Shown: positions 35,737-54,882 of the stretch, piece by piece
Numbering within the stretch: the stretch's first letter is position 1
Layout of the letters: every line of letters begins with the position of its first letter
From: Candidatus Magasanikiibacteriota bacterium
GTDB taxonomy: Bacteria > Patescibacteriota > Patescibacteriia > Magasanikbacterales > 2-02-FULL-50-9b
DNA: 64,000 nucleotides
Assembly: GCA_903893485.1 (NCBI GenBank)
Contig: CAITMK010000011.1
Location: forward strand, 6,636 to 70,635
Direction: 5' to 3'
Program-made: the position numbers and the translations under genes
The notes under the pieces: generated by a model
Database searches by the model: none
Seen by the model: the letters and a program-made list of their open reading frames with translations, nothing else
Told to the model about the DNA's origin: nothing

Positions 35737-35757
35737 CTTCGATTCCCGTCAGCACAG
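35737..35757 (+). repeat. Partial copy of the tRNA-Glu 3' end (TΨC loop plus acceptor), inverted relative to the intact tRNA at 43110–43181
   Basis: TTCGATTCCCGTCAGCAC versus tRNA-Glu TTCGATTCCCGTTAGCAC (17/18 match); no complete cloverleaf can be folded around it. Confidence 0.6.
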
Positions 35758-35762
35758 CTGAT

Positions 35763-35800
35763 ATTTAAAAATATCCAGCGTTTGCTGGATATTTTTAAAT
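35763..35800 (+). terminator. Terminator-like hairpin
   Basis: aaaaATATCCAGCgtttGCTGGATATtttt. Confidence 0.6.
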
Positions 35801-35960
35801 AGCCCCGGGGACACTGCTAGCGAACTTTTTTATTCAAGCGGTGCGTGTCGAGCCTGAAATGCGGCAGTGGAGTGCTGACATCCGCAACTTTTTGAGTAAG
35901 GAAATACGGGAACCTAAATTTATGGTAACATACTAAAAAGCCATAAATAAAAAGAAAACT

Positions 35961-36143
35961 ATGTCATTACAACGAAAAGACGCATTGACCGACCTTATTC
36001 ATCACACGCCACGCGACAACGGACAAAATAACAAGCCACAAGGGCAAAGCCAACCTGCCGGAACAGTAATTGCGGCAGATGGTACATTAGTAACCCTTGG
36101 CTTAAATCAGAGTAAAAATTCGTCTGACACCTCTAATAAGTAA
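35961..36143 (+). CDS. Hypothetical small protein (low-complexity, Gln/Asn/Ser-rich)
   Basis: 60 aa ORF at the left edge of the AT-rich island; weak support. Confidence 0.2.
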   Translation: MSLQRKDALTDLIHHTPRDNGQNNKPQGQSQPAGTVIAADGTLVTLGLNQSKNSSDTSNK

Positions 36144-36169: not shown

Positions 36170-37432
36170 ATGCTGGGAAAAGATTTTGACGACATCGATT
36201 GTGATACCGTAAAAGCATTTTTAGAAAGTCAGGCTGACGAAACCCAAAAGATTGAGTTTAAAAGAGAAGCGTGGATTGATAAGCCTGATAAAGATGCCGA
36301 AAAAGGTGATGAAATGTTAAAGGATATTACAGGAATGGCTAACGCGTACGGCGGCTATATTTTACTTGGTGTGAAACAAAATAAAGAAAATGAGGTAATC
36401 ACTTATGAATTTTTTAATATTCCTGACCATGATAAAGAGATGGTGCGCATTAAGCAAAGATGCAACGCATGCATACAACCACGTCTTGATGGTTTTAAAA
36501 TAAAGAGTGTGGAGATGACAACGCTGGAAAAGGAAAGGGTGGTAATTCTGATTTTGAATGTTCCTCGGGGTATTAATGCGCCGCACGCAGCAAAAATGAC
36601 TGATATGCGCGCGGCCTATTGGTTTTGGCGTCGTTATGGTGACATTGTTTTGCCGATGCAGACATTTGATATACGAAAACAAATTATGGATACTTATTTT
36701 GGGACGGAGACTTTGGAGAAAAAATTTACTGATGCTTTTAATCATTTTAAAATCATTAATCATAGCGCGCCGCCATACATTTGGTTGGTCGCTAGTCCGG
36801 CAGATGTTTTGTCTAATAATCGAGTTGACATTAAAAATTCAGCAGTCAAACAAGCCTTTATAAATGAAAAAAGTGCATATACAACCAATCCTTTTCAATT
36901 CACTTTTAAATCTGAAGAATTAAAATATACGGTACGGGGTTTGTGCGCAGCAAGGTCGGGCTATAATATGGGTAAGCGTATAGAACTTCATAAGAGTGGT
37001 TTTCTTCAGGGTATTGGATTTTCTATTTTATCCGAAGAGCCGGGCGCATCAAGTAGACAGTTGTTATCTACATATCGGATTAGGTCGTTTATTTTGAGTT
37101 TTATTAGTCAGGTGTACACCTTATATCAAAATGCAAATATTCAGGGCGGTGTTGATTTTCAGGTTGCAATTGGACAAGCGCAGGGATGCAAACTTCCAAA
37201 TAGGGAGAAAGCACAATACGAAATTGGCATGGCTAGCACAATGATTGTAGAAAATTCATACGATGACACCGTACCACTTATATCTGAAATTATTCATATA
37301 GATGATTTTGACCGTAAACAAATTTTGTTGGTCGCTGACGATTTAGCTGAAAAGGTTTGGAATGGCTTTGGATTTGAAAAAGCAGCGCAATTTAGCCAAG
37401 AATATATTGACGATATAATGAGCCAAACATAG
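36170..37432 (+). CDS. AlbA_2/Schlafen-like putative nucleic-acid-binding domain protein with uncharacterised C-terminal domain
   Basis: The N-terminal roughly 140 aa carry the KIEFKRE...ITGMANAYGGYILLGV...VVILILNVPRG hallmark of the AlbA_2 (Schlafen-type) domain; the remaining roughly 280 aa are unrecognised. AT-rich codon usage. Confidence 0.55.
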   Translation: MLGKDFDDIDCDTVKAFLESQADETQKIEFKREAWIDKPDKDAEKGDEMLKDITGMANAYGGYILLGVKQNKENEVITYEFFNIPDHDKEMVRIKQRCNACIQPRLDGFKIKSVEMTTLEKERVVILILNVPRGINAPHAAKMTDMRAAYWFWRRYGDIVLPMQTFDIRKQIMDTYFGTETLEKKFTDAFNHFKIINHSAPPYIWLVASPADVLSNNRVDIKNSAVKQAFINEKSAYTTNPFQFTFKSEELKYTVRGLCAARSGYNMGKRIELHKSGFLQGIGFSILSEEPGASSRQLLSTYRIRSFILSFISQVYTLYQNANIQGGVDFQVAIGQAQGCKLPNREKAQYEIGMASTMIVENSYDDTVPLISEIIHIDDFDRKQILLVADDLAEKVWNGFGFEKAAQFSQEYIDDIMSQT

Positions 37433-37448
37433 CGCCAACAGGCTTTAT

Positions 37449-37862
37449 ATGACCTCTAATACTGTTAGTTTGGGTAGTTACGAAGAATCGTACAAATCTG
37501 ACACTTACGCTCAGTTTCAGGAACTCATAAGCACGCGTACAGCTTTGTGTACCCATAAGAACAGCTCAGTAGATAAAAACGAACGTGAGAGTACACGAAG
37601 AGCAAAAGACCGTCTCGTGGCAATTTATGGGCACTACGGTTACGTCAGTGTGAGTGTTGCGGTGCGGTATGCAGGAATAAGCCGAGACACCTACTACCGT
37701 TACTTACGTGAGGACGCAAATTTCGCGGCAAAAATTAATGAGGCGCAGGAATTTCTAAATGACTATGTGGAAGACCTATTGCTTAAAAAAATTGTGCGGG
37801 ACGAAAATATAGCTTGTATCAAGTTTTATTTATCCCACCGACACCCGGCTTACAGGAAGTAA
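37449..37862 (+). CDS. HTH-domain protein
   Basis: 137 aa; VSVAVRYAGISRDTYYRYLRE looks like a helix-turn-helix (resolvase/terminase-small-subunit style). Confidence 0.4.
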   Translation: MTSNTVSLGSYEESYKSDTYAQFQELISTRTALCTHKNSSVDKNERESTRRAKDRLVAIYGHYGYVSVSVAVRYAGISRDTYYRYLREDANFAAKINEAQEFLNDYVEDLLLKKIVRDENIACIKFYLSHRHPAYRK

Positions 37863-37866
37863 TATA

Positions 37867-38193
37867 TTAGGATTTGAGTAGCGAAACAATGATTTGAACG
37901 ATACCAACAAAAACAAGTGCGCCAGTCAAATAAGTCATTCGGTTTGCATATTTTTCATTACTCGCACTAAGCTCGGTGTTTGATTTGATACTTTTTTCGG
38001 CGCTTTCTCTAATTGTACCTCGCAGCTGCGCAACACTAAGAGGAATTTGAGTGCTGAGGAGTTGTATGGCTTTTGCAAGTTCCTCTGATTTTTCTCCAGT
38101 AAACAATGCTGCTGCTGCATTTACACTAACGTCGGCGGTGGAATGCGGATTATCTTTATATCGACTTAATAATTCGGTTGGGGTCATTGGCAT
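37867..38193 (-). CDS. Hypothetical C-terminally membrane-anchored protein
   Basis: MPMTPTELL...; C-terminal TM (LTGALVFVGIVQIIVSLL); the start lies 2 nt after the stop of the upstream gene. Confidence 0.35.
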   Translation of the reverse strand: MPMTPTELLSRYKDNPHSTADVSVNAAAALFTGEKSEELAKAIQLLSTQIPLSVAQLRGTIRESAEKSIKSNTELSASNEKYANRMTYLTGALVFVGIVQIIVSLLKS

Positions 38194-38195
38194 AG

Positions 38196-39245
38196 TTATT
38201 TGTTGCGCAGAAGAGCACGAAAAAGAGCCAAGATACCTGAAGCAAAAAAAGCAAAAGTAAAGTTGTATTGGATGATTGTAACAATCAAGGAAATCAACCA
38301 GAGGGCAAAGGAAATCACAATGAAGAGCCAAAACCACTGAATAACAAAAAGGAAAACGTTGAATTTGAAACCAGAAGAAGTTTCATTTATGACGTTATTT
38401 TTAAGGTTCGGTATATCCTCATTTTCGAGGTCGGCTATATCATCCTGTTTATTGATAGTAGGCTTTTTATTTAGAAAAAACTCAACACGTTCCAGCACCT
38501 CTTTACCAGACCTAAACTCATTATAAGATATGCCGACATATTTTTCGGATTTTTCTTCAAATAATTGCTCAAGAACTTTATTTAGGTGCTCTCTAGCACT
38601 TTCTAATTCCGCTTCAGACATCACATCCCGTTTTGTTTTCGGATACGAAATTATATCTAAATCTTCGGACTCGTCCATTATTTGTAAACCCGTTTCATCT
38701 GACTTGAGTGCCATTTCTACTTTGAGCGTCGCATCCTTTATTTTTTCTGATAACTGTCGTAAATATCGACGGTGGTCATTTGGAGTAATTATTTCAGGAT
38801 GCTTGGAAAGGATATACATTGAGACAGGGTTACCCGCCCAGCCCTCGTGCCACTCAACCTCTTTTTTGAGGCCGTCAATAAGCTCATCGGTCGAGGTAAT
38901 GAAATCAAGCCAATCTTTCCCCTCTCGTTCTTTGCGAATAGCTGACTCTAAAACGACCCCGTCTTTTACACTGTATCGTTCTGGTGGTTCGTGCTTTTGT
39001 TCAATGAGTCGCGTTTCTACCTTTATAGGATTAGTTTTTATACGGTATTCGAATTTGTCGGTGTAATAATCATATTCAAGACTCATCATTGATTGATAAG
39101 TCTTTGTTTCTGGGTATACGTCAAAAGTACAATCACCAAAGGTGAGTGTACCGTTGCCATCTTCTTCAAAAATTTCTATTTCCATAAAATTGGTATACCC
39201 ATAATAGGATACATACACTTTCCCATATTGAGACCTAAAAATCAA
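38196..39245 (-). CDS. Hypothetical protein with soluble N-terminal domain and two C-terminal TM helices
   Basis: 349 aa; acidic coiled N-terminal region; C-terminal FNVFLFVIQWFWLFIVISFALWLISLIVTII plus a second TM. Confidence 0.45.
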   Translation of the reverse strand: MIFRSQYGKVYVSYYGYTNFMEIEIFEEDGNGTLTFGDCTFDVYPETKTYQSMMSLEYDYYTDKFEYRIKTNPIKVETRLIEQKHEPPERYSVKDGVVLESAIRKEREGKDWLDFITSTDELIDGLKKEVEWHEGWAGNPVSMYILSKHPEIITPNDHRRYLRQLSEKIKDATLKVEMALKSDETGLQIMDESEDLDIISYPKTKRDVMSEAELESAREHLNKVLEQLFEEKSEKYVGISYNEFRSGKEVLERVEFFLNKKPTINKQDDIADLENEDIPNLKNNVINETSSGFKFNVFLFVIQWFWLFIVISFALWLISLIVTIIQYNFTFAFFASGILALFRALLRNK

Positions 39246-39250
39246 CTATA

Positions 39251-39868
39251 TTAGTGACATTGTGGACTTAAACTGCGGTTTGGGTACGCCTGCAATAGGT
39301 CTGTGAGCGAGCCAAAAGATTTAAGATATTTAGGACTTAAACTTCGCCACGCACTGCATGATGCTGGATAATACAGCTTGGCTGAGCCGTACGATGAAGT
39401 GTAATATGCCGGCGCTTCCTGCGTTGGTGGCGTGATTGGCAAAATGGTTGGTGCTGGTGCTTCATTTACCACAACCGGTGCTGTAGTTATTTGCGGCACA
39501 AACACTGGAGCTGCCAGCTCTGAATTTGTAGCAGCCTTAGTAGGCTTTGTTTGCGGTGATTTATAGTGAGTGAGCCAATCTGTCGAAATTTCTTTTTGCG
39601 CCTCGTCAATGGTCATTTTACCGGTGCAGACTTGTTTGTGTAGCTTGTTTTCAAAAACGTCTTTGACTCGTGACCCATTATTTATACCATACGCTTCAGG
39701 CCACAAATTTGAAATGTCATTACTGCCACCAAGTTCAAGACTGATGAGATGGTCAACTTCGTAATTGCTGCGGCGGCTGTATGGAATACCATATTCTGCG
39801 AATACCTGTTTTTTCTCGGTCGTGGTTACATTGCGCACCGTCTTTGTGTAACCGGTTTTACAAATCAC
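39251..39868 (-). CDS. Secreted HNH endonuclease (annotated from an internal GTG; in-frame signal-peptide-like sequence continues upstream to about 40033)
   Basis: HNH motif YEVDHLISLELGGSNDISNLWP; Pro/Thr-rich linker. Upstream in frame: KSSHFITPIAFALSLFIITPAFA|DYG (a signal peptide with an AFA cleavage site) but no ATG/GTG/TTG before it. Confidence 0.6.
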   Translation of the reverse strand: MICKTGYTKTVRNVTTTEKKQVFAEYGIPYSRRSNYEVDHLISLELGGSNDISNLWPEAYGINNGSRVKDVFENKLHKQVCTGKMTIDEAQKEISTDWLTHYKSPQTKPTKAATNSELAAPVFVPQITTAPVVVNEAPAPTILPITPPTQEAPAYYTSSYGSAKLYYPASCSAWRSLSPKYLKSFGSLTDLLQAYPNRSLSPQCH

Positions 39869-40097
39869 CGAAATGTCAGTGGTGAGAACTGCGCCCGGCG
39901 TACATGCAGGGTCTTGATATGCGGTGTTACCAACGCAACCAACTGTTTTGGTTTGTACGCCGTAATCAGCAAATGCAGGCGTAATAATGAATAACGAAAG
40001 CGCGAACGCGATGGGGGTAATGAAATGGGAGGATTTTATAGGGGTTTATTTTTAGGGAAAATATCACGAATTATTTTGCTGCTTGATTAGGCGTATT

Positions 40098-41153
40098 TTA
40101 CTGTAGCTCAACACTCGTGCCATCCCAGTCACTCCAACGACCTGTTGCGACTGTTCTGATGCCGTTGCTTATGTTGACCTGAACACTCGAATTTGGATAA
40201 TTTTGCTTCAGTGATTTCACGAGGCTGGTTACAAAATCTTTTTTAGTCGTATCGGTCGCATATGCCCATGAAATATTAGTTACGTCTGCAGCCAAGGTTG
40301 CTGCGGTAACTTTCCCTCGATAGTCACTTTCATCGCCACCTGCAGCGTAGTCTTTCTCAGCATCATCTGGTGCTTGAAGATTAACAGCACCATCGAAACC
40401 GACTGATTTATAAAGTGTAATGAAGGTTGTCGCGGTTTGTGCGGCCATGGAGTTGTTACCAAGGTTCGTATCAAATTTCTGACGCTGCGAAATCGTCGCC
40501 TGAAGCGCTTGTGGTGAGATAATGAATGCGCCGGTAAATTTACTCGCATCGTTAATTTCTGGAACGAATTTGACGCGGTAGTCAGCACCAGCGATGTTGA
40601 AATTGCCCGCAATACCTAGAACACTTTTATCTGCTACAGCGTCAGTTGATGTTATAAAGAAGTTTTTTACTGCTAGTGTTTTATAGTCGTACGTGACGTC
40701 AAGCGATATATCACCATTCTGATACGTTTCGTCCCATTCGTAATTGGCTGCTTGCAGTTCTGATTTACTTGGTGTTGCAGCATCTTTTGGTTTACCGCCA
40801 AGTGCAGCGCGAATTTGTGTGATGTTTTTTCCAAATAACGATGGAATATCAAATGATGGTTTTGGCTGCGGTGGCACTTCTGCAACAGCCTGCTGTACAT
40901 CTGGCTTATTTTCTGGCGCAGCGGCTGGTATGGAAGTTGTCAGCTGATTTTGATTTGTAGCTGCAACGGTCGCCGGTTTTGGAGGCGCTGGAGGTGCAGT
41001 GGCAGCAACACCAAAAAAGCCAACGATAAATGTAATACCGCAGACCATAAGAACACGTTTGCGGGATGGAAGTTTAATCCGTGCCGGATTGATTAAGCCT
41101 ACGATGCCTACAACAATAGAGCCGAGTAAAATGATGACAAAAATGCCTGACAT
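40098..41153 (-). CDS. Hypothetical membrane-anchored protein with Pro-rich linker
   Basis: Two N-terminal TMs, APPAPPKPATVAAT linker and a roughly 250 aa extracytoplasmic domain. Confidence 0.45.
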   Translation of the reverse strand: MSGIFVIILLGSIVVGIVGLINPARIKLPSRKRVLMVCGITFIVGFFGVAATAPPAPPKPATVAATNQNQLTTSIPAAAPENKPDVQQAVAEVPPQPKPSFDIPSLFGKNITQIRAALGGKPKDAATPSKSELQAANYEWDETYQNGDISLDVTYDYKTLAVKNFFITSTDAVADKSVLGIAGNFNIAGADYRVKFVPEINDASKFTGAFIISPQALQATISQRQKFDTNLGNNSMAAQTATTFITLYKSVGFDGAVNLQAPDDAEKDYAAGGDESDYRGKVTAATLAADVTNISWAYATDTTKKDFVTSLVKSLKQNYPNSSVQVNISNGIRTVATGRWSDWDGTSVELQ

Positions 41154-41458
41154 ATTTTTATACAACTGGGTATTTTGCAATATGCCACGATGGATTTTGC
41201 ATTATACAATTTGAATAAAACCGGATTGTCTTAAATAAAAAAAGCGACACCCGGGGTGTCGAAGCCCAACTTAAGCACAGGTCGTGCTGAGGTTGTTTTA
41301 CCGGGCGCCGCTTTCATCGCGCGACCTGGAAAAATAGCCAAATGGCCTACTTAAGTTGAACTTCGACCAAAACAATATAGCTTAAAATTTTGACTAAGTA
41401 AAGCCGTAGTAACTTTTGCGGCAATGAGGTAAAATTAATGATACATAATGCATAAAAT

Positions 41459-43147
41459 ATGGCAGAAGATGACAAAAGCGTTTCAAACCTAGTTGCTCGT
41501 CTCAAGAACACAATTGGTGTTGAAAAACAGGCCGAACAAGACCTTGAAAACATGCGTTATGTTGCTTATGTTCGTAAAAGCACTGACGATGGCGTCCACC
41601 AGCTTCGTTCAATTGGCGACCAAATCAAAGAATGCAGAGATTTGGCGATAAGAATAGGTGTCGGAAGAGTACCTATTGTACCCGAAGAACAATCGGCTAA
41701 AATTTCCGATAAACGTCCTAAATTTCGGCAAATGCTGAACGATATCGTCGATGGTAAATATGATGGGATTATTGCTTGGGCTCCTGACCGTCTAGCGCGC
41801 AATATGAAAGAAGGTGGTGAAATCATCGACCTGCTTGACCGTGGCGTAATCAAAGACATTAAGTTCGCTAACAATTATATGTTTAGCAACGACCCATCAG
41901 GTAAAATGTTGCTCGGCATTGCGTTTGTAATGGCAAAACAGTATTCAGACCAACATGGGCAAAATGTGAAACGTGGCTTTGACCACCTAACAGAAGACGG
42001 AAAGTGTGGTGGTGCAGCAAAGCATGGATACTACAAAGACCAGCATAAGTTTTTACAACCAGATGGTGAGAATTGGACGCTTATTAAGCGGGCGTTTGAA
42101 ATGCGTTTAGATAAAAAAAGCCTTAAAGAAATTTCAGAGTTTTTAGAGGAGGCTGGATACCCGCTGCAAACGAAACACAGTAAACGTACCTCAATAAATG
42201 TAAATGTAAAATTTGTATCCGACATGTTTCGTGACCCATTTTATGCTGGTGCAATGGTTCGAGGCGACAAAATTATTGAATTGTCAAAAAAATATAAATT
42301 CACGCCAATTATTACATCAGAACAGTTTGATGAGATGACAACCTTAGATAAGATTAGTAAAACATTTCGCCTGACTGAGGCAATCAAAGAGAGAGGGTCA
42401 GTAAGGGCAGATTTGATGCGTAAGATGATTATTTGCGCACACTGCAAGCGCTTCATGTCGGCGAGTATAAATGAAAAGCACACAACACTTAAAAGTGGTG
42501 AACGGCGCGAGATAAACTATCTTAGATATAGGTGCGATACCGGAGGTTGTAAAAGAAAAGGGAAAACGGTTAGAGCAAAGATTATCTGTGACGCGGCGTT
42601 TGAATTTCTTAAAACGCACCCAATGAACATAAATGAGGGTTATGAAGCCTATGCGCGTGAAATGGAACGACAAGCGGTACTTCAAGGCACGGACGTCGCA
42701 ACGCGACTGCAATCACTTAAGCAGCGCCGCGTGGTTATCATCAATCGTAAGAGCATTGCAAGGCAGGATATGGAGGAATATGCGCCTGACCCTCTGATGC
42801 GCAAAGAGTTTGCAAGTGAATTTCGAAATCAGACACAACTGCTAAAAGACATTGATAAACTCATTGATGAGACTGAGCAAGAAAAAGAGGGTAAAAAATC
42901 AGCAAATAAGAGCCTCATGGAATTCATCGAACTATTCAATAATTTGACTAAGGTTATACAAAATTATAAGCACATGGAGGACTTGGATTATGTGATGAAA
43001 AAAGTGTTCTCGAACTTTGAAACTGATGGTAAAAAAGTGACTAAGATAACACAAAACTCCCCTTTCAGGGAGCTGTGTGAGCCAGTTAAGGCTGTAAATT
43101 GTACTAATATAGTGCTAACGGGAATCGAACCCGTCTTCTTAGATTGA
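41459..43147 (+). CDS. Large serine recombinase (phage-integrase-type)
   Basis: N-terminal resolvase catalytic domain YVAYVRKSTDDGV...SIGDQ (nucleophilic Ser), recombinase domain, zinc-ribbon CAHCKRF...YLRYRCDTGGC and a coiled-coil tail. The last about 12 codons are the reverse complement of the tRNA-Glu TΨC arm. Confidence 0.85.
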   Translation: MAEDDKSVSNLVARLKNTIGVEKQAEQDLENMRYVAYVRKSTDDGVHQLRSIGDQIKECRDLAIRIGVGRVPIVPEEQSAKISDKRPKFRQMLNDIVDGKYDGIIAWAPDRLARNMKEGGEIIDLLDRGVIKDIKFANNYMFSNDPSGKMLLGIAFVMAKQYSDQHGQNVKRGFDHLTEDGKCGGAAKHGYYKDQHKFLQPDGENWTLIKRAFEMRLDKKSLKEISEFLEEAGYPLQTKHSKRTSINVNVKFVSDMFRDPFYAGAMVRGDKIIELSKKYKFTPIITSEQFDEMTTLDKISKTFRLTEAIKERGSVRADLMRKMIICAHCKRFMSASINEKHTTLKSGERREINYLRYRCDTGGCKRKGKTVRAKIICDAAFEFLKTHPMNINEGYEAYAREMERQAVLQGTDVATRLQSLKQRRVVIINRKSIARQDMEEYAPDPLMRKEFASEFRNQTQLLKDIDKLIDETEQEKEGKKSANKSLMEFIELFNNLTKVIQNYKHMEDLDYVMKKVFSNFETDGKKVTKITQNSPFRELCEPVKAVNCTNIVLTGIEPVFLD

Positions 43148-43181
43148 GAATCTAATGTCCTAACCGATAGACGATAGCACC
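43110..43181 (-). tRNA. tRNA-Glu (anticodon CTC)
   Basis: Minus strand: GGTGCTATCGTCTATCGGTTAGGACATTAGATTCTCAATCTAAGAAGACGGGTTCGATTCCCGTTAGCACT; perfect anticodon stem TTAGA/TCTAA, loop TTCTCAA; G1·U72. Confidence 0.7.
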
Positions 43182-43362
43182 AAGTGAGGAGCAACGTCCA
43201 CGCTTGCGTGGACGGTTGTTCCGAACGCCGGTGCGCGCTTTCGCAAAGCGAAAGCCTAGCAGCCAGCCGAATATCGCTGGCATCATTCTATCAATTCCCA
43301 CCAAAAATTTCAAGATGTACCAAAAAAGCATTATGTCCGTATTGCTTATGTAATTTTTATTT

Positions 43363-49392: not shown

Positions 49393-52300
49393 ATGGCAGA
49401 ACCAACGGATTTGTATTCAGGAGAACATCAGGAAATTGTTGATGCGTTATACACCAGTTATCTTGCAAACTGGGTAGACGTTGTGTTTGCTGGCCCCACA
49501 GAAATTTTTTCAGTAGATGGAAATGCAAATGCAACTTTTTTAATAAGTCTTGATCCAGACGCAAGTGATGATGCAAATACTGCAGCCGCAAAATTAAAAG
49601 CGAAGGAGCTAATTAGTTCCGGCAATTTTGATAAAATTGGTGATATTTATATTAGTCGAGCGGCTAACGAAATTGCGACACGATTAATTGCTAGTTCTGC
49701 GGAAAGCAAAAAAGGTAAAAAACTTTTGAAAGAAATTGAGCGAATTGGGTCACTGTCACGAGTGCAGGATGAAATTAGCGAAGCGTTAAAAGAAAAAAAA
49801 TATTCATTTAAAGCGTACTTGAATAATGGTGCAAATATTGAAGCGCTTGATGCATTAAAAAAACATCTTGAGGATAAAAAAAATAAGACTGAATCTGAAA
49901 AATATTTGCTTGCACAAATTGAAAAACAAATTGCAGAGCCAGTATCCCATGATGATCGGGTTCATGCAGGTTTGGTGGAATTTAAAGCGCCAGAGCCAGC
50001 GCCAAAACCAGAAATTCAAAAAATAATTCCACGACAAGTAAAGCCGGAAGAACGTGAAAAAAAAGATCGTACCACAGGTATGCCTGAATGGCATGCAAAA
50101 CCAGTTGCAGGCGCGCTCATGCCGGTTAAAATGATTGTAAATAGTGCGCGCCGTGCGCGTTATGAGGCAGTGTATGTGTCAGCAAATCCGGATGCGCCAC
50201 GCATTCCAATTACGCTCAAGGTTCAGCAGCAGATGAGTTACATGCCACCTGGTGCGCAGACAATTTTGGTGCGCTTGGGTGAACCTCAGCCAATGAAAAA
50301 TACGGCGGGCAAAGTTGATCGCTACGAAATTATTGCCACGCCAGAAATTCCAAAAATAGAGAGCGGTGCGTATATTAAGCCTGTGGATTTTCAACATGTT
50401 GGCGGTGAGGCATTTTATGTTTTGCCCGACGGCTCGCGCATGTATATTTCTCCAAAGGATCGCCTCATGCTGAATGCTAAAACCGGTTATTTGGTTGATG
50501 CAAAAGGTGAAGATACTGGTATTCCACCACTGGTAAAAATCGAAAAACATGTTCGTGAAAACACCTTTATTGGTTTTGTTGAACCGCTCGTCCGCGCTCG
50601 CAATCGTATTCAAATGGAAGGCGTCATGCGCCAGTATATTTTTGGAAGTCGTGCGCAGCGCAACTTGAGCCCCGATGATCGTGAATTTGTTGAACAAGTC
50701 GAGCGTCTTGGTTTGTTGGTTGGTAATAAACAAGTGCCCGTTGAAATCGGACGCAGACTTCGTTTGATTTTAGAAAAGGAAACAAAAAAAGAACCACAGT
50801 ATGTGGTGGTAACAGCGCGTACCACGGTGCTCCGCAAAGGTTTTCGTGAATTTGATGGATGGCTTACAAAATTTGGTAAAAAATATCCAGCTGCAAAATC
50901 AATGACCGATGAACTTTCGGCTGCCGCGGCAATTGCAAAAGATGAAATGAACGCCATGGCGCTCAAAGTGAGTAATAATGAAACCATTAGTGAGGAAGAA
51001 AAAGCGGAATATTCTGCACGCTATTCTGATTTTTTTATTAAACTATACGAGTTTGAACAATCGCCGCTGAGCCGTCCAAATGGTGGTGTGCGTCGTTTAC
51101 GCGAACGCTTTTTTACCTCTGACCTTGATGGTGAATCCGCAAATGTTATTTTAAATAAAGCTGGCATTCGCACGCTCGTTGTGCCGCAAGTACCAAATAT
51201 TATTCCTGAGGGCGAACAGAATATTGATGGTGCGGTATATTTGGACGCATCGCATTCGCTTGGTACCAAAATTCGACAAAACGGTGATAAACTTGAAATA
51301 TTTTTGGATGAAGATAATGTAAAAACTTTTTCAGCGACTCACGCAACGCTTCGTCACACTGAAAAATTGGGGCTGTTGACCAAAAAGGGTGCAGACATTG
51401 GCGAGATGCAATATTTTATCGAAATGGTAAATGCGATCGATGGATTCAAAGGGCCGTACGAAGATCCAAAACGAATCAAAGCGATTTACCAAAGTTACGA
51501 TACAAATATTTACGGCATTTCGCAGGAGCTCGCTAAAATGGGCCGTCCTGATTTAGTGTTTTGGTTTTTTGAAAAAGCCGGGCAAAAAATTGTGCGAAGA
51601 GCGCAAGAGCTTTCGCGCGCCGAAGGCGCACGCCGAAAACCAGCCGAATATGTTTTAGATGTTCTCATAAATTTTAACGCCGCAGAGGTTTTTGAAAATA
51701 AAAAACCGCCGCTCAAGATAATTGAAGCGGTTAAAAAAGCAATTCAAAAAAATAAGGCAAATACTGAAAAAGGTTTTGCAACGCTTGAAAATTCAAAAAA
51801 TAGTTTTGTCATACAAACTGATTTTGGACGCACGCTGGTTGATATTGCGCAGCCAATGGAAATTGATGATCAAGAAACCGGGCTGAAAAAAACGCTTTGG
51901 CTTGGTCGTATTAAAATGTCGGGGTTAGCTGCATTTGCCCATGGATATGATGCATATGTTGCATACAACCCCGATGGAAAAGTTGGCATGGTAAATATTC
52001 GCCCAGGCTTAAAAACAAAAAGTGGCAAGCCAAACGTGTTGCCCGTGGACATGGCCATGGATGAAAATGGATTACCAAAAGGTGATTGGATTAAAGACGG
52101 CCGCATGTACGTCATGAATGACACGAGCACCAAACTGAGTGGCTTGCACGAATTTTTGGATTCCATGTGTCGTACGGTGCCAAAGAATTTTACGCCAGGC
52201 ATTGAACGTCAAATAAAATTGGATGCGGGCATGGATGTTTCTGCTCCACCACCTCCACCTGATCGTTCGAAATTAACTCCAAAGCAATTAGATATTCAGC

Positions 52301-54882
52301 GAAATATCTTATCGAAGAAATTGGAAAATCTTAAACAGCATCCTGAATTAATTTCCGAGATTGATGCGGGTTTTGTCATTGCCGCCGAAGAGGGCGTGCT
52401 TCGTGAGTTCACAAAGTTATATTATGATGATGAAGAGCAACGATCAGCATCAGATTTTATCATTTTAGAGTGGTGGAAAAATTTACACGCAGATACTCGC
52501 AAGAAAATTTTGATGAAAGCTGAGGCAATCCGTACGCAAGTCATGAAAGCGCACGATCTTCGTCGTAAAAATGAAGTCGAGCTTAGCAACATGTCGCGTA
52601 TATTGGCGCGATTGCGTTATGACGAACGTGTGGCGCTCTATCGAGCTGCTCGTGCCGGTGCCGAAATTCCCGTTCCATTTAATGCTTTTTCTGCTCATGG
52701 CCCAACGCCAGAGCAAAAGGCGCAGTGGCAAAAGTTTGTAATTAAAGAATGGTATGGAACTTTAACGCATCAGCAGCATGTCTATTTCAAAGAACGCGCT
52801 GATTTGCCGGGCATTTTGCGTGAACGCGCGGAAAAAACGCGCCTTGAGCTTGCCCGCATTGACAGCGAACTAAGGGAGTTTTCATCAACGGGAAGCCGAT
52901 TTAAAGCAGTATTTACGTCGCAAGATGAAGCGGATAGAAAAAAGTTACAATTCGAAAAGCTTCAGGCTGAGCGAAAGATTGCAGTATTAGAATATCGCGT
53001 AGCACAAGAAGAAATTTGGGTGCAGGATCAGACGCAAGAGGCAGATAAATTAATCGACGAGATTTTGGTAAAATTTGAAAAGAATGCGTCAGGTTTATCA
53101 ACGCGACTTTTTGGTAATACGAATATTGCGTGGAATGTTGGTGCGCAGACAATTTCAGGGGAGGCGATATATGGTTTAATTAATGGTACCCCAGATATAA
53201 CGGGCGCACTCAGAACATCGCCATTTTTATTGGGTGAATCAGTAGCAGCAATTACGTTAAAACGACGCGAACCCGCTGAGCTTACTGGCGAGCGCATGCC
53301 ACAAACGCCACTTGAACAGTGTATTTTTTTGCAGCGAAAAATTTCGGAAATATACGGTGCTGAAACGATAAAATATGGTTCAATTACTGCAGCCATCGAA
53401 CACGATCCGCTCAAAAAATTATATAGTCAATACAAAGAATCTCTTGACCATTCAGTTTCCGACAAAATGTATTTTTTGAAGGATATTTTTGCGCGTCAGG
53501 ACAAAATGTTTCAAGCTTTTGTCGCAGTAAATACTTTTGGAAACTCTTTTGATGGTCTTTCGAAGTCTGTTGCGGGTGCTAACGAGCGATATGCGGGCTA
53601 TAAAGCAAAAGGAAAATTAAAAGGCGCCCTTTTGAATATGCACGAAGGCCTTGCAAAGTTTGATGTTGCGGTTCAGGAATATCAGCAGGCACTTAATGAA
53701 TTGCCTCATTTAGTAGATAAAAAATTCATCGATCTTGTCCAGGAAAAAATTAAAACAAGATTTGAATTGTCAAAGAAAATAGGCGATGCTTGGGTTACCA
53801 ATCGTCAAGCAGAAATTCCAGCACTTTTAGATCAAAGTAAATACGATGACGATGCGACTGTTGCTCAAGCAGTTATTCGAACTGAAGTGGTGCGGCACGT
53901 TGTCCGGGCAGCAGCAAATGTAGATGAAGCTGTAGCACGTGCCGATGAAGAATTGGCCACCCGTGGTGTGCGTACATTTGATACCGGTTTTACAACGCCA
54001 GAACAAAAAGGTTTTTTTGGTCGCGTTTTTGAAGGCGTTGGTATTCCGTCGGAAGAACGCCGTTTATGGGGCCCAACGCTTAAAACTGGTGGCGCATCCC
54101 TGCGTGAAATTGCAGGCAAGAAAAATGAGCATATCGTGCAGCCATTTGAATCGCCATTTGATGTAGTTGAACAATTGATGCAAGCAGTGCATCCCGAAAT
54201 TGGCCCTGCAATGATCACTCGTTTGACGCAGCGATTTATGACAAAGGGTGAAGTGAAAGATTCTGCTGGGCAATTTTCAGGTGCGTTTATGCATAATGGC
54301 CAGTATCTCGGCACCTTGCACGCTGGTGATCGCGTTATTGCATGGCATTCCGAAAACGCAGCCATGGCGGAAATGCGTATCGAAATTAAGCGCGCTCCAG
54401 TAGTGGCGCATACCATCAAAGAAGTATCCGGCTATCCATTTTTTGCCGATGATGGAACGCTTGAATTTTTCTATGAACCTGCACAAAATAATAGCGTTGA
54501 TGTGTGGGAACGTGGATCAAGAGGCGTGCTGCGTAAAAAAGGATCCTTTGATTCCGCAAACAGATTTCAACCTTACGCCGAGAGACTTTGGAAATTTACG
54601 AATAACCAAGGTGCCTTGGATACGGTTGGCGAATCAGATTATTATGTTTGGTTTAGCCCCAATGGCGACGTGATTGATAACGAAAGAAACGAAAAGATTG
54701 GAAAAACAGAAGCGTTTGGAAGATATTTATTTGTAATTCCCGACACCGGCGTTCAAAGAAAAATAGACACTACAACGGGTAAATTTTTCATCGACACGGC
54801 GGGCATCGTTTGGCAATCAGATAAACTGATTGGCGATCAGCCGCTCGGCGCACTTATCGCGCATCTGAACACGCTGCCGTAG
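49393..54882 (+). CDS. Giant hypothetical protein (1829 aa)
   Basis: Uninterrupted 5.5 kb ORF with no signal peptide or TM, Lys/Glu-rich probable coiled-coil stretches, a PPPPPD segment; no catalytic motif recognised. Confidence 0.6.
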   Translation: MAEPTDLYSGEHQEIVDALYTSYLANWVDVVFAGPTEIFSVDGNANATFLISLDPDASDDANTAAAKLKAKELISSGNFDKIGDIYISRAANEIATRLIASSAESKKGKKLLKEIERIGSLSRVQDEISEALKEKKYSFKAYLNNGANIEALDALKKHLEDKKNKTESEKYLLAQIEKQIAEPVSHDDRVHAGLVEFKAPEPAPKPEIQKIIPRQVKPEEREKKDRTTGMPEWHAKPVAGALMPVKMIVNSARRARYEAVYVSANPDAPRIPITLKVQQQMSYMPPGAQTILVRLGEPQPMKNTAGKVDRYEIIATPEIPKIESGAYIKPVDFQHVGGEAFYVLPDGSRMYISPKDRLMLNAKTGYLVDAKGEDTGIPPLVKIEKHVRENTFIGFVEPLVRARNRIQMEGVMRQYIFGSRAQRNLSPDDREFVEQVERLGLLVGNKQVPVEIGRRLRLILEKETKKEPQYVVVTARTTVLRKGFREFDGWLTKFGKKYPAAKSMTDELSAAAAIAKDEMNAMALKVSNNETISEEEKAEYSARYSDFFIKLYEFEQSPLSRPNGGVRRLRERFFTSDLDGESANVILNKAGIRTLVVPQVPNIIPEGEQNIDGAVYLDASHSLGTKIRQNGDKLEIFLDEDNVKTFSATHATLRHTEKLGLLTKKGADIGEMQYFIEMVNAIDGFKGPYEDPKRIKAIYQSYDTNIYGISQELAKMGRPDLVFWFFEKAGQKIVRRAQELSRAEGARRKPAEYVLDVLINFNAAEVFENKKPPLKIIEAVKKAIQKNKANTEKGFATLENSKNSFVIQTDFGRTLVDIAQPMEIDDQETGLKKTLWLGRIKMSGLAAFAHGYDAYVAYNPDGKVGMVNIRPGLKTKSGKPNVLPVDMAMDENGLPKGDWIKDGRMYVMNDTSTKLSGLHEFLDSMCRTVPKNFTPGIERQIKLDAGMDVSAPPPPPDRSKLTPKQLDIQRNILSKKLENLKQHPELISEIDAGFVIAAEEGVLREFTKLYYDDEEQRSASDFIILEWWKNLHADTRKKILMKAEAIRTQVMKAHDLRRKNEVELSNMSRILARLRYDERVALYRAARAGAEIPVPFNAFSAHGPTPEQKAQWQKFVIKEWYGTLTHQQHVYFKERADLPGILRERAEKTRLELARIDSELREFSSTGSRFKAVFTSQDEADRKKLQFEKLQAERKIAVLEYRVAQEEIWVQDQTQEADKLIDEILVKFEKNASGLSTRLFGNTNIAWNVGAQTISGEAIYGLINGTPDITGALRTSPFLLGESVAAITLKRREPAELTGERMPQTPLEQCIFLQRKISEIYGAETIKYGSITAAIEHDPLKKLYSQYKESLDHSVSDKMYFLKDIFARQDKMFQAFVAVNTFGNSFDGLSKSVAGANERYAGYKAKGKLKGALLNMHEGLAKFDVAVQEYQQALNELPHLVDKKFIDLVQEKIKTRFELSKKIGDAWVTNRQAEIPALLDQSKYDDDATVAQAVIRTEVVRHVVRAAANVDEAVARADEELATRGVRTFDTGFTTPEQKGFFGRVFEGVGIPSEERRLWGPTLKTGGASLREIAGKKNEHIVQPFESPFDVVEQLMQAVHPEIGPAMITRLTQRFMTKGEVKDSAGQFSGAFMHNGQYLGTLHAGDRVIAWHSENAAMAEMRIEIKRAPVVAHTIKEVSGYPFFADDGTLEFFYEPAQNNSVDVWERGSRGVLRKKGSFDSANRFQPYAERLWKFTNNQGALDTVGESDYYVWFSPNGDVIDNERNEKIGKTEAFGRYLFVIPDTGVQRKIDTTTGKFFIDTAGIVWQSDKLIGDQPLGALIAHLNTLP

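Follow-up and report, generated by a model that had tools for sequence, protein, structure and literature searches.

Prokaryotic Schlafens (pSlfn), the described proteins closest to the gene considered here, were first shown only in 2026 to act as anti-phage tRNases, and their nuclease has been known since then to be fused to diverse, often unannotated sensor domains. Phage defence by RorSlfn5 and EcoSlfn7 was reported together with a survey (Perez Taboada et al., Nat Microbiol 2026; PMC13056530), in which mutation of the E-x4-(E/D)-x-K motif of RorSlfn5 (E15A/D20A) abolished phage defence and tRNA cleavage. This survey listed 558 "unannotated fusion" clusters and a "TBP-like" fusion class accounting for 1.5% of pSlfns. 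It found 30% of pSlfn genes without a defence neighbour, and allowed non-immune roles for these. CbCash (PDB 9ylu) cleaves tRNAs in their T-loops and anticodon loops, and its activation proceeds via its fused sensor domain by oligomerisation; mutation of E17/D22/K24 eliminates its tRNA cleavage, and R25 lines the pocket (PMC13462974). The present work deals with a window, i.e., the whole stretch of 64,000 nucleotides analysed on contig CAITMK010000011.1 of a Candidatus Magasanikiibacteriota bacterium, and with a 420-aa protein encoded at 36170..37432 of this window. This protein is probably a single-gene anti-phage defence of the pSlfn kind, carried as cargo on a ~7.3-kb serine-recombinase element inserted in the 3' end of a tRNA-Glu gene.

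An earlier note on this DNA had described an AlbA_2/Schlafen protein followed by a helix-turn-helix (HTH) protein. Both open reading frames (ORFs) are indeed where it placed them, at 36170..37432 (420 aa) and 37449..37862 (137 aa), both on the forward strand, both starting with ATG and separated by 16 nt. The peptide that it quoted (ITGMANAYGGYILLGV) corresponds to residues 53-68 of the 420-aa ORF, and DITGMANAYGGYILLGV was found within the same translation, at residues 52-68. The Schlafen gene comprises the following features:

36170..37432, forward strand: prokaryotic Schlafen (pSlfn) gene, 420 aa, starting with ATG; N-terminal nuclease and C-terminal uncharacterised domain.
36170..36679, forward strand: Schlafen/AlbA_2 nuclease domain, residues ~1-170, recognised through Pfam PF04326, Foldseek and the family profile against CbCash.
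36239..36262, forward strand: catalytic motif E24-TQKI-E29-F-K31 (E-x4-(E/D)-x-K), then R32, placed by alignment in the CbCash register.
36692..37429, forward strand: C-terminal domain, residues ~175-420, probably sensory or regulatory, with no Pfam, PDB-sequence or significant Foldseek match.
37349..37375, forward strand: C-terminal family motif (D/E)(R/K)phi-W-(N/Q)-(A/G)-F-G-(F/Y), from the family alignment.

The N-terminal domain was clearly recognised by several approaches. The Pfam family SLFN_AlbA_2 (PF04326), which the earlier note had named from the letters alone, matched residues 24-150 with an E-value of 1.6e-12 and 48.4 bits, for a gathering score of 25.3 bits. This match covers 127 aa, a significant match of more than 100 aa being taken as the sign of a full-length Schlafen domain. 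PF04326 was also found in all 15 family members scanned (best E-value 3.4e-19), while the rest of the 420-aa protein had no match in Pfam, NCBIfam, PADLOC or PHROGs. Family alignment and structural modelling both place the end of the domain at about residue 170. The AlphaFold2 model of the whole protein had a predicted local distance difference test score (pLDDT) of 69, with values mostly of 73-87 per 10-residue block in the N-terminal domain and dips to 59-66 around residues 21-50. Searched with Foldseek, this model retrieved 2kyy (E-value 1.9e-4, probability 1.0), SLFN14, SLFN11, SLFN13 and SLFN5, in line with a Schlafen/AlbA_2 fold. Among solved structures, CbCash (9ylu) was the best relative of a 15-member family profile (E-value 1.4e-10); only the N-terminal domain aligned (profile positions 24-183), with E24/E29/K31 in register with E17/D22/K24 of CbCash. 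The E-x4-(E/D)-x-K motif was present in 27 of the 27 family sequences displayed, at overall identities down to ~20%. Such retention of the triad in every member examined, despite so low an overall identity, points to selection for catalysis. Judged by its sequence, the 420-aa protein is thus a Schlafen-type nuclease with an intact metal-dependent RNase triad, E24/E29/K31, and R32.

This organisation is in line with that of the described pSlfns in several respects: an N-terminal PF04326 nuclease, the E-x4-(E/D)-x-K motif, a single polypeptide of ~400 aa (43 kDa for RorSlfn5), a C-terminal non-nuclease domain, and an association with defence neighbourhoods and mobile elements. As in pSlfns, the nuclease is fused to a second domain, here a separate C-terminal one of ~250 aa. 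By contrast with pSlfn5, this domain is predicted to be mixed alpha/beta with long helices, rather than all-beta and immunoglobulin-like (Ig-like), and no Ig-like match was obtained. It also differs from those of other pSlfns, being neither DUF262, nor histidine-kinase/HATPase, nor HTH, with no match in Pfam or the PDB. The likeness to CbCash concerns the E-D/E-K triad and the basic residue that follows it; CbCash additionally has a Csx15 (CARF/SAVED-like) cA4-binding domain and belongs to type III CRISPR loci, neither of which was detected here. A SAVED match with an E-value of 0.043 on an unrelated ORF of the island was taken as noise. With mammalian SLFN11/12/13/14, the protein shares the nuclease core fold and the catalytic motif. 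Mammalian Schlafens, however, combine a two-lobed nuclease with linker and helicase domains, whereas the window protein has a single Schlafen lobe, and neither hhalign nor the model search detected any similarity of its C-terminal domain to a second lobe.

The commonest bacterial AlbA_2 architecture is the AlbA_2-HATPase_c_4 one, annotated as "RecG-like / ATP-binding". The window protein resembles it through its N-terminal AlbA_2, and plasmid relatives found by tblastn, which are annotated as "ATP-binding protein", matched its N-terminal half only. It differs from it in that Pfam revealed no HATPase_c_4, histidine-kinase-like or winged-helix domain in 15 family members, the cut-offs for HATPase_c_4 being E <= 1 for the window protein and E <= 0.1 for the 15 members. 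The earlier note had accepted that its proposal would fall if the C-terminal region proved to be a housekeeping fold such as HATPase_c_4, with homologues in conserved, non-mobile contexts; this was looked for, and was not what we found.

The C-terminal domain indeed falls in no described family, as had been suggested, although the unassigned part amounts to ~250 aa rather than the ~280 aa first given, since the Schlafen domain reaches about residue 170. No Pfam match to it was found in 15 members, and no PDB match extended beyond the N-terminal domain with profiles built from 3, 7 or 15 members. Modelled alone with AlphaFold2, it had a pLDDT of 74 and a predicted template-modelling score (pTM) of 0.79, with helices H6-39, H144-164 and H227-242, and a predicted mixed alpha/beta fold in which a beta-alpha-beta4-alpha unit occurs twice. 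Foldseek gave no significant match for this model, whether to a GHKL fold, to an Ig-like fold or to Schlafen. There is at most a weak hint of a TBP-like fold, which is defined by a duplicated beta-alpha-beta4-alpha unit. An exhaustive HMMER search of 1.84 billion representative proteins with a profile of the C-terminal domain alone returned six matches, one of them a spurious repeat protein; the five real ones were Schlafen fusions of ~390-420 aa, or copies of these truncated at the N-terminus. The domain thus occurs only fused to this Schlafen domain. A relationship to a degenerate second Schlafen lobe was also considered and rejected: the hhalign overlap was confined to 12 residues that are common by construction, and the model search yielded no Schlafen.

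From a mechanistic point of view, the C-terminal domain evolves faster than its partner (median pairwise identity of 18%, vs 31% for the N-terminal domain). Outside its motifs, conservation is mainly structural and concerns Pro, Gly, Trp and hydrophobic residues, and no obvious catalytic constellation emerged from the conservation pattern. A fast-diverging, non-enzymatic-looking domain joined to a conserved effector is what has been published for pSlfn effector-sensor fusions (PMC13056530). The domain had been proposed as a "novel effector or sensor". Of these two options, we prefer the sensor: because the catalytic triad is intact in the Schlafen domain, catalysis is placed there, and the C-terminal domain is better read as a sensory or regulatory one. 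The effector is most likely the Schlafen domain itself. At window positions 36989-37009 (residues 274-280), the clade of the window protein, which includes P0002 and P0003, has H/Y-K-S/N-G-x-x-Q in place of F-R-N-G-x-x-E. This change may reflect an altered ligand or trigger specificity.

The family is rare and patchily spread. A pattern scan of species-representative genomes gave 11 members in about 8 lineages, namely Armatimonadota, Actinomycetota, Dehalococcoidia, Acidobacteriota, Gemmatimonadales, Candidatus Peribacteria, an unclassified bacterium and a Woesearchaeote. Pattern scanning also gave 11 loci on IMG/VR viral contigs, 9 of which match the family hidden Markov model end to end (E-values of 1e-44 to 1e-73). 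Portal, large terminase, major head, tail sheath and integrase genes on the viral contigs identify them as genuine tailed (pro)phages. At individual family loci, the following neighbours were recorded:

L014: type II methyltransferase on the upstream side, Mrr_N / type IV restriction protein on the downstream side.
L016: type III Mod and Res directly upstream, small HTH gene downstream.
L022: PifA-like KAP NTPase, then PD-Lambda-4-like protein.
L018: DpdJ-like helicase about 6 kb off.
L017: phage capsid gene.
L023: Bro-N gene.

A pooled PADLOC scan of 126 neighbour proteins also gave ThsB/TIR, type I specificity subunits and candidate systems, not mapped to loci. Association with defence or mobile elements is thus seen at the family level, through restriction-modification (R-M) genes, PifA-like, PD-Lambda-4-like and DpdJ-like neighbours and prophages, and for the window copy through its integrative element. 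Clustering of the ±4 neighbouring genes at 22 family loci revealed no recurrent partner, and the family therefore behaves as a stand-alone gene. The patchy distribution of the family across lineages, together with the occurrence of members in prophages, in R-M loci and on integrative elements, is consistent with a conflict system. The tightest R-M association was observed in L016 (717-6963), from a Woesearchaeota metagenome-assembled genome, where Mod, Res, Schlafen (the third gene) and a small HTH gene (mad1/CasR-like) are co-oriented; this is also the archaeal occurrence of the family.

Several observations weigh against a role in defence, or at least against its detail. Named defence neighbours were mapped at just 4 of the 11 genome loci, a partial mapping, and five loci (L003, L006, L013, L015 and L019) adjoin housekeeping genes. 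No PADLOC model matches the 420-aa protein, and neither PADLOC nor NCBIfam revealed a recognised defence gene beside the Schlafen gene in the island of the window. The model of the C-terminal domain, obtained from an alignment of 7 sequences, reaches only moderate confidence. Finally, F-R-N-G-x-x-E, the most conserved polar motif of this domain, is altered to H-K-S-G-F-L-Q in the window protein. Defence, which the earlier note had entertained as one of two options, nevertheless remains the best reading, in view of the intact triad, of a family found beside restriction and defence genes or in prophages, and of the carriage of the gene as cargo on a mobile element.

The mobile nature of the island, already proposed, was supported by its composition, its integrase and the existence of a homologous element at another tRNA-Glu in a different context. 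The G+C content is 0.38-0.42 over ~35-43 kb, vs ~0.45-0.48 in most of the flanking sequence. The Schlafen gene is accessory cargo on a ~7.3-kb element, which a large serine recombinase inserted at the tRNA-Glu 3' end. Besides the Schlafen gene, the main parts of this element and its borders are:

35762..35801, no strand: inverted repeat of 18 bp without mismatch (18/18 complementary, 4-nt loop), between A/T-rich flanks, interpreted as a bidirectional terminator, in host sequence just outside the left end.
35800..35813, no strand: probable attL core (TAGCCCCGGGGACA), at the start of homology to the sister element.
35803..35960, forward strand: conserved non-coding leader, probably recombinase-binding arm and promoter (74-80% DNA identity to L001).
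35961..36143, forward strand: gene of a 60-aa small protein, element backbone, with the core QSQPxGTVxxxDGTxVTLG.
37449..37862, forward strand: 137-aa orphan ORF, probable HTH at residues ~65-92, with weak HTH / terminase-small-subunit-like matches; cargo or regulator of the element.
41459..43147, forward strand: large serine recombinase, 562 aa, the final 39 nt of its ORF lying within the 3' part of tRNA-Glu.
43109..43182, reverse strand: tRNA-Glu(CUC), the integration target (ARAGORN; Rfam 61.7 bits), with attR at its 3' end (~43109-43125).

The recombinase has the two domains and the length (about 500-600 aa) of large serine recombinases, with Pfam matches to Resolvase (PF00239, E-value 1e-20) and Recombinase (PF07508, E-value 2.5e-9) and a PHROG integrase match at an E-value of 3e-54. 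As its ORF overlaps the tRNA gene by 39 nt, the element appears to supply the tRNA 3' end. The closest homologue of the Schlafen protein (47% identity) lies in an equivalent element, L001/L002, with the same order: a 60-aa ORF (63% identical), the Schlafen gene, different cargo, and a recombinase (68% identical) that overlaps tRNA-Glu(UUC). The genes flanking the L001 element differ from those of the window, so that the same element is seen with defined ends in two contexts. Homology to L001 starts at ~35800, just inside the terminator hairpin, and L001 has a different hairpin at the equivalent spot, just outside attL. The TAGCCCCGGGGACA of the window aligns with TAGTCCCGAGGACA of L001, which is part of a direct repeat of the tRNA-Glu 3' end in L001 (14 nt, TGGTAGTCCC[G/A]AGG at both element ends). 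The two ends of the element in the window share only ~4-5 identical nt (ATAG).

The leader of ~160 nt (748-905 in L001) is 74-80% identical between the two elements, vs 62% for the adjacent coding DNA, and the element proteins are 47-68% identical. A promoter-like TTGAGT-N17-TAAATT, read by eye and kept in L001, was not flagged by the promoter scan. The leader, compared here in two distinct sequences, may contain a recombinase-binding arm, a promoter or a structured RNA. The 60-aa ORF that follows, which the earlier note had not mentioned, is the gene that is conserved beside Schlafen in the sister element. Its differences from L001/L002 (20/10/38 substitutions by codon position, 20 synonymous codon changes) form a clear coding signature, while its product has no Pfam or PHROG match. 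Homologues of 60-65 aa were found in L001 (906-1088), L039 (2-160), L042 (6111-6302) and L043 (608-805). In L039, L042 and L043, the small ORF is followed by a 135-137-aa gene with an N-terminal HTH and then by other cargo, and there is no Schlafen gene. Since sister elements without a Schlafen gene also have it, the 60-aa ORF belongs to the backbone of the tRNA-Glu element clade, and its position at the attL end makes its product a candidate recombination directionality factor or regulator.

Relatives of the recombinase were then sought in metagenomes with a two-sequence alignment as query, a single-sequence query having returned nothing. The 54 loci retrieved (L038-L091) include 25 in which a minus-strand tRNA abuts or overlaps the 3' end of the recombinase gene, which indicates a tRNA-targeting integrase lineage. 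The abutting tRNA is Glu in the closest recombinase clade, and Pro (often beside Leu), Ala, Gln or Val elsewhere. A Schlafen gene was absent from all 54 loci, and sister elements are as small as ~3 kb. Because the small ORF and the recombinase persist in sister elements without Schlafen, these two genes form the backbone and Schlafen is a swappable cargo. In L039, a DUF4238 protein (619-1623; tblastn E-value of 2e-8 to an annotated DUF4238 protein) occupies the slot that separates the recombinase from the backbone HTH gene, and the DUF4238 family has a validated single-gene anti-phage member, active against T7 (PMC9122126). The variable slot therefore contains Schlafen in two of the elements and, in a third, a DUF4238 defence gene, which suggests that the slot downstream of the small ORF is a defence-gene hotspot. 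Its organisation is in line with the P2/P4 defence hotspots (Rousset et al., 2022; PMC9122126), with a conserved backbone (small ORF, integrase at a tRNA) and a variable slot. It differs from them by its large serine recombinase instead of a tyrosine integrase, by its size of ~3-7 kb, and by its occurrence only in uncultured, metagenome-derived organisms.

The 137-aa ORF raises the question of a two-gene module, as proposed in the earlier note, in which Schlafen and the HTH protein would act as sensor/effector and regulator, or as toxin and transcriptional antitoxin-like repressor. We consider this very unlikely. The two genes are indeed co-oriented and 16 nt apart, the distant member L016 also precedes a small HTH gene (mad1/CasR-like), and several weak matches converge on residues ~65-131 of the 137-aa protein. 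These matches (Pfam HTH_Tnp_1_2, E-value 1e-3, below the gathering score; PADLOC mad1, E-value 9e-3) make the HTH label plausible, and fall short of a firm assignment. On the other hand, no relative of the 137-aa ORF was found among 5.8 billion proteins, its occurrences were confined to same-strain contigs, and the search of family neighbourhoods placed no relative of it beside any of about 22 family members, so that the proposed pair did not recur. It has no detectable kinship to the HTH gene of the sister elements or to that of L016, and the genes that follow the closest Schlafen homologues encode a Zn-ribbon membrane protein, HU or a transmembrane (TM) protein. It is best treated as a strain-specific, putatively DNA-binding gene of the element, and not as a conserved partner. 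The same ORF matched terminase-small-subunit families of PHROG (E-values of 2e-6 and 1e-5), and could thereby evoke a phage satellite or cryptic prophage remnant, with Schlafen serving inter-element competition and the 137-aa protein redirecting packaging. A weakly HNH-like ORF nearby and the family members in tailed prophages go in the same direction. The terminase-like matches are, however, essentially limited to the HTH region and below Pfam thresholds. Moreover, Pfam and PHROG scans of the element revealed no capsid, portal, large terminase, primase or replication genes, and the ~3 kb of the smallest sister elements argue further against a satellite, which is the least probable explanation that we considered.

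Another possibility is an addiction module, with the upstream 60-aa protein as antitoxin and the Schlafen RNase as toxin, which would stabilise the integrated element rather than fight phages. A small conserved ORF located 26 nt upstream of a potentially toxic RNase is indeed the classic antitoxin-toxin order, and the pair is kept in L001/L002. The two genes are not co-inherited beyond this, however: L039, L042 and L043 have the small ORF without Schlafen, and no homologue of the small ORF accompanies about 20 other family members. As each occurs without the other, the small ORF tracks the element backbone and not the nuclease, and an addiction module appears distinctly unlikely. A non-immune function, with AlbA_2 as a DNA- or RNA-binding module controlling genes of the element or of the host, is likewise unlikely, though it has some arguments. 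AlbA_2 has long been annotated as DNA-binding ("putative DNA-binding / RecG-related regulator"), the top structural match, 2kyy, is the N-terminal domain of a "RecG-related" protein, some family loci have housekeeping neighbours only, and the published survey leaves room for such roles in its ~30% of pSlfn genes. Conservation of the triad in every member examined argues against it, as do the failure of Pfam to detect a HATPase_c_4 or HTH domain in the window protein and 15 members and the patchy, mobile-element-linked distribution described above.

We thus favour anti-phage defence by the Schlafen protein alone, for which the following scheme can be proposed. By analogy with RorSlfn5, EcoSlfn7 and CbCash, the protein would be present in the uninfected cell as an inactive, auto-inhibited oligomer. 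Infection would be sensed by the C-terminal domain, the cue being most likely a phage protein. The activated nuclease would then cleave host and phage tRNAs, in a metal-dependent manner, in the anticodon arm or the T-loop, and this would stop translation and lower phage yield. Such a defence would protect host and element alike. The gene is probably co-transcribed with the upstream 60-aa gene from the leader (gaps of 26 and 16 nt). A broader and more tentative proposal, which is possible and which we hold with less assurance, is that the C-terminal domain represents an undescribed, possibly TBP-like infection-sensor fold gating the Schlafen tRNase. It would define a new pSlfn class scattered among bacteria, archaea and prophages, delivered here by minimal (3-7 kb) serine-integrase elements that target tRNA genes, belong to an undescribed lineage and have a defence-gene hotspot downstream of a conserved small gene.

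The remainder of the element, between the 137-aa ORF and the recombinase gene, is occupied by cargo on the opposite strand:

37867..38337, reverse strand: cargo ORF (108 aa in public gene calls).
38196..39245, reverse strand: cargo ORF.
39251..39868, reverse strand: cargo ORF, weakly HNH-like.
40098..41180, reverse strand: cargo ORF with an N-terminal TM segment.

None of these four ORFs (37867..41180) had a significant family assignment and none is conserved in L001; two have predicted membrane segments. The HNH-like product (39251..39868) has a BLASTP relative in L020 (10844-11332), three genes away from another Schlafen-family member. No empty tRNA-Glu was seen among contigs of the same population, which break or diverge near the island. 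Two of them, L035 (1-121) and L036 (1-122), from related samples, correspond to window positions 43191-43311 with an identical cupredoxin gene, and diverge fully ~130 nt right of tRNA-Glu (left of 43312). Several same-strain contigs are interrupted within the island or at its borders. This divergence and these breaks could be due to population heterogeneity or to an assembly artefact at the integration site. On the other side, to the left of the terminator hairpin, positions 35738-35755 match the tRNA-Glu 3' end (T-loop, 3' strand of the T-stem and 3' strand of the acceptor) at 17 of 18 nt, while ARAGORN and Rfam reported no tRNA there. This match, the only long one to the tRNA-Glu 3' end, was discarded as attL, being inverted relative to the tRNA gene and outside the element; an older event, or a convergent tRNA-like gene, may have left it behind. 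Further downstream of the region studied, an ORF of 1829 aa occupies 49393-54882 on the forward strand.

As far as we could check, the C-terminal domain and the minimal tRNA-targeting serine-integrase elements are undescribed, the supplementary cluster lists of the pSlfn papers excepted. The unit of interest is the single Schlafen gene in a cargo slot, and not the pair of AlbA_2 and HTH genes. The family extends to bacteria, an archaeon and prophages, and keeps its triad at ~20% identity. It offers a compact (~400 aa), single-gene example of a prokaryotic Schlafen with a sensor domain that has no described relative, and could thus help to find a new mechanism of trigger recognition. The suggested defence-cargo hotspot, in poorly studied uncultured lineages, could in turn be mined for further systems.

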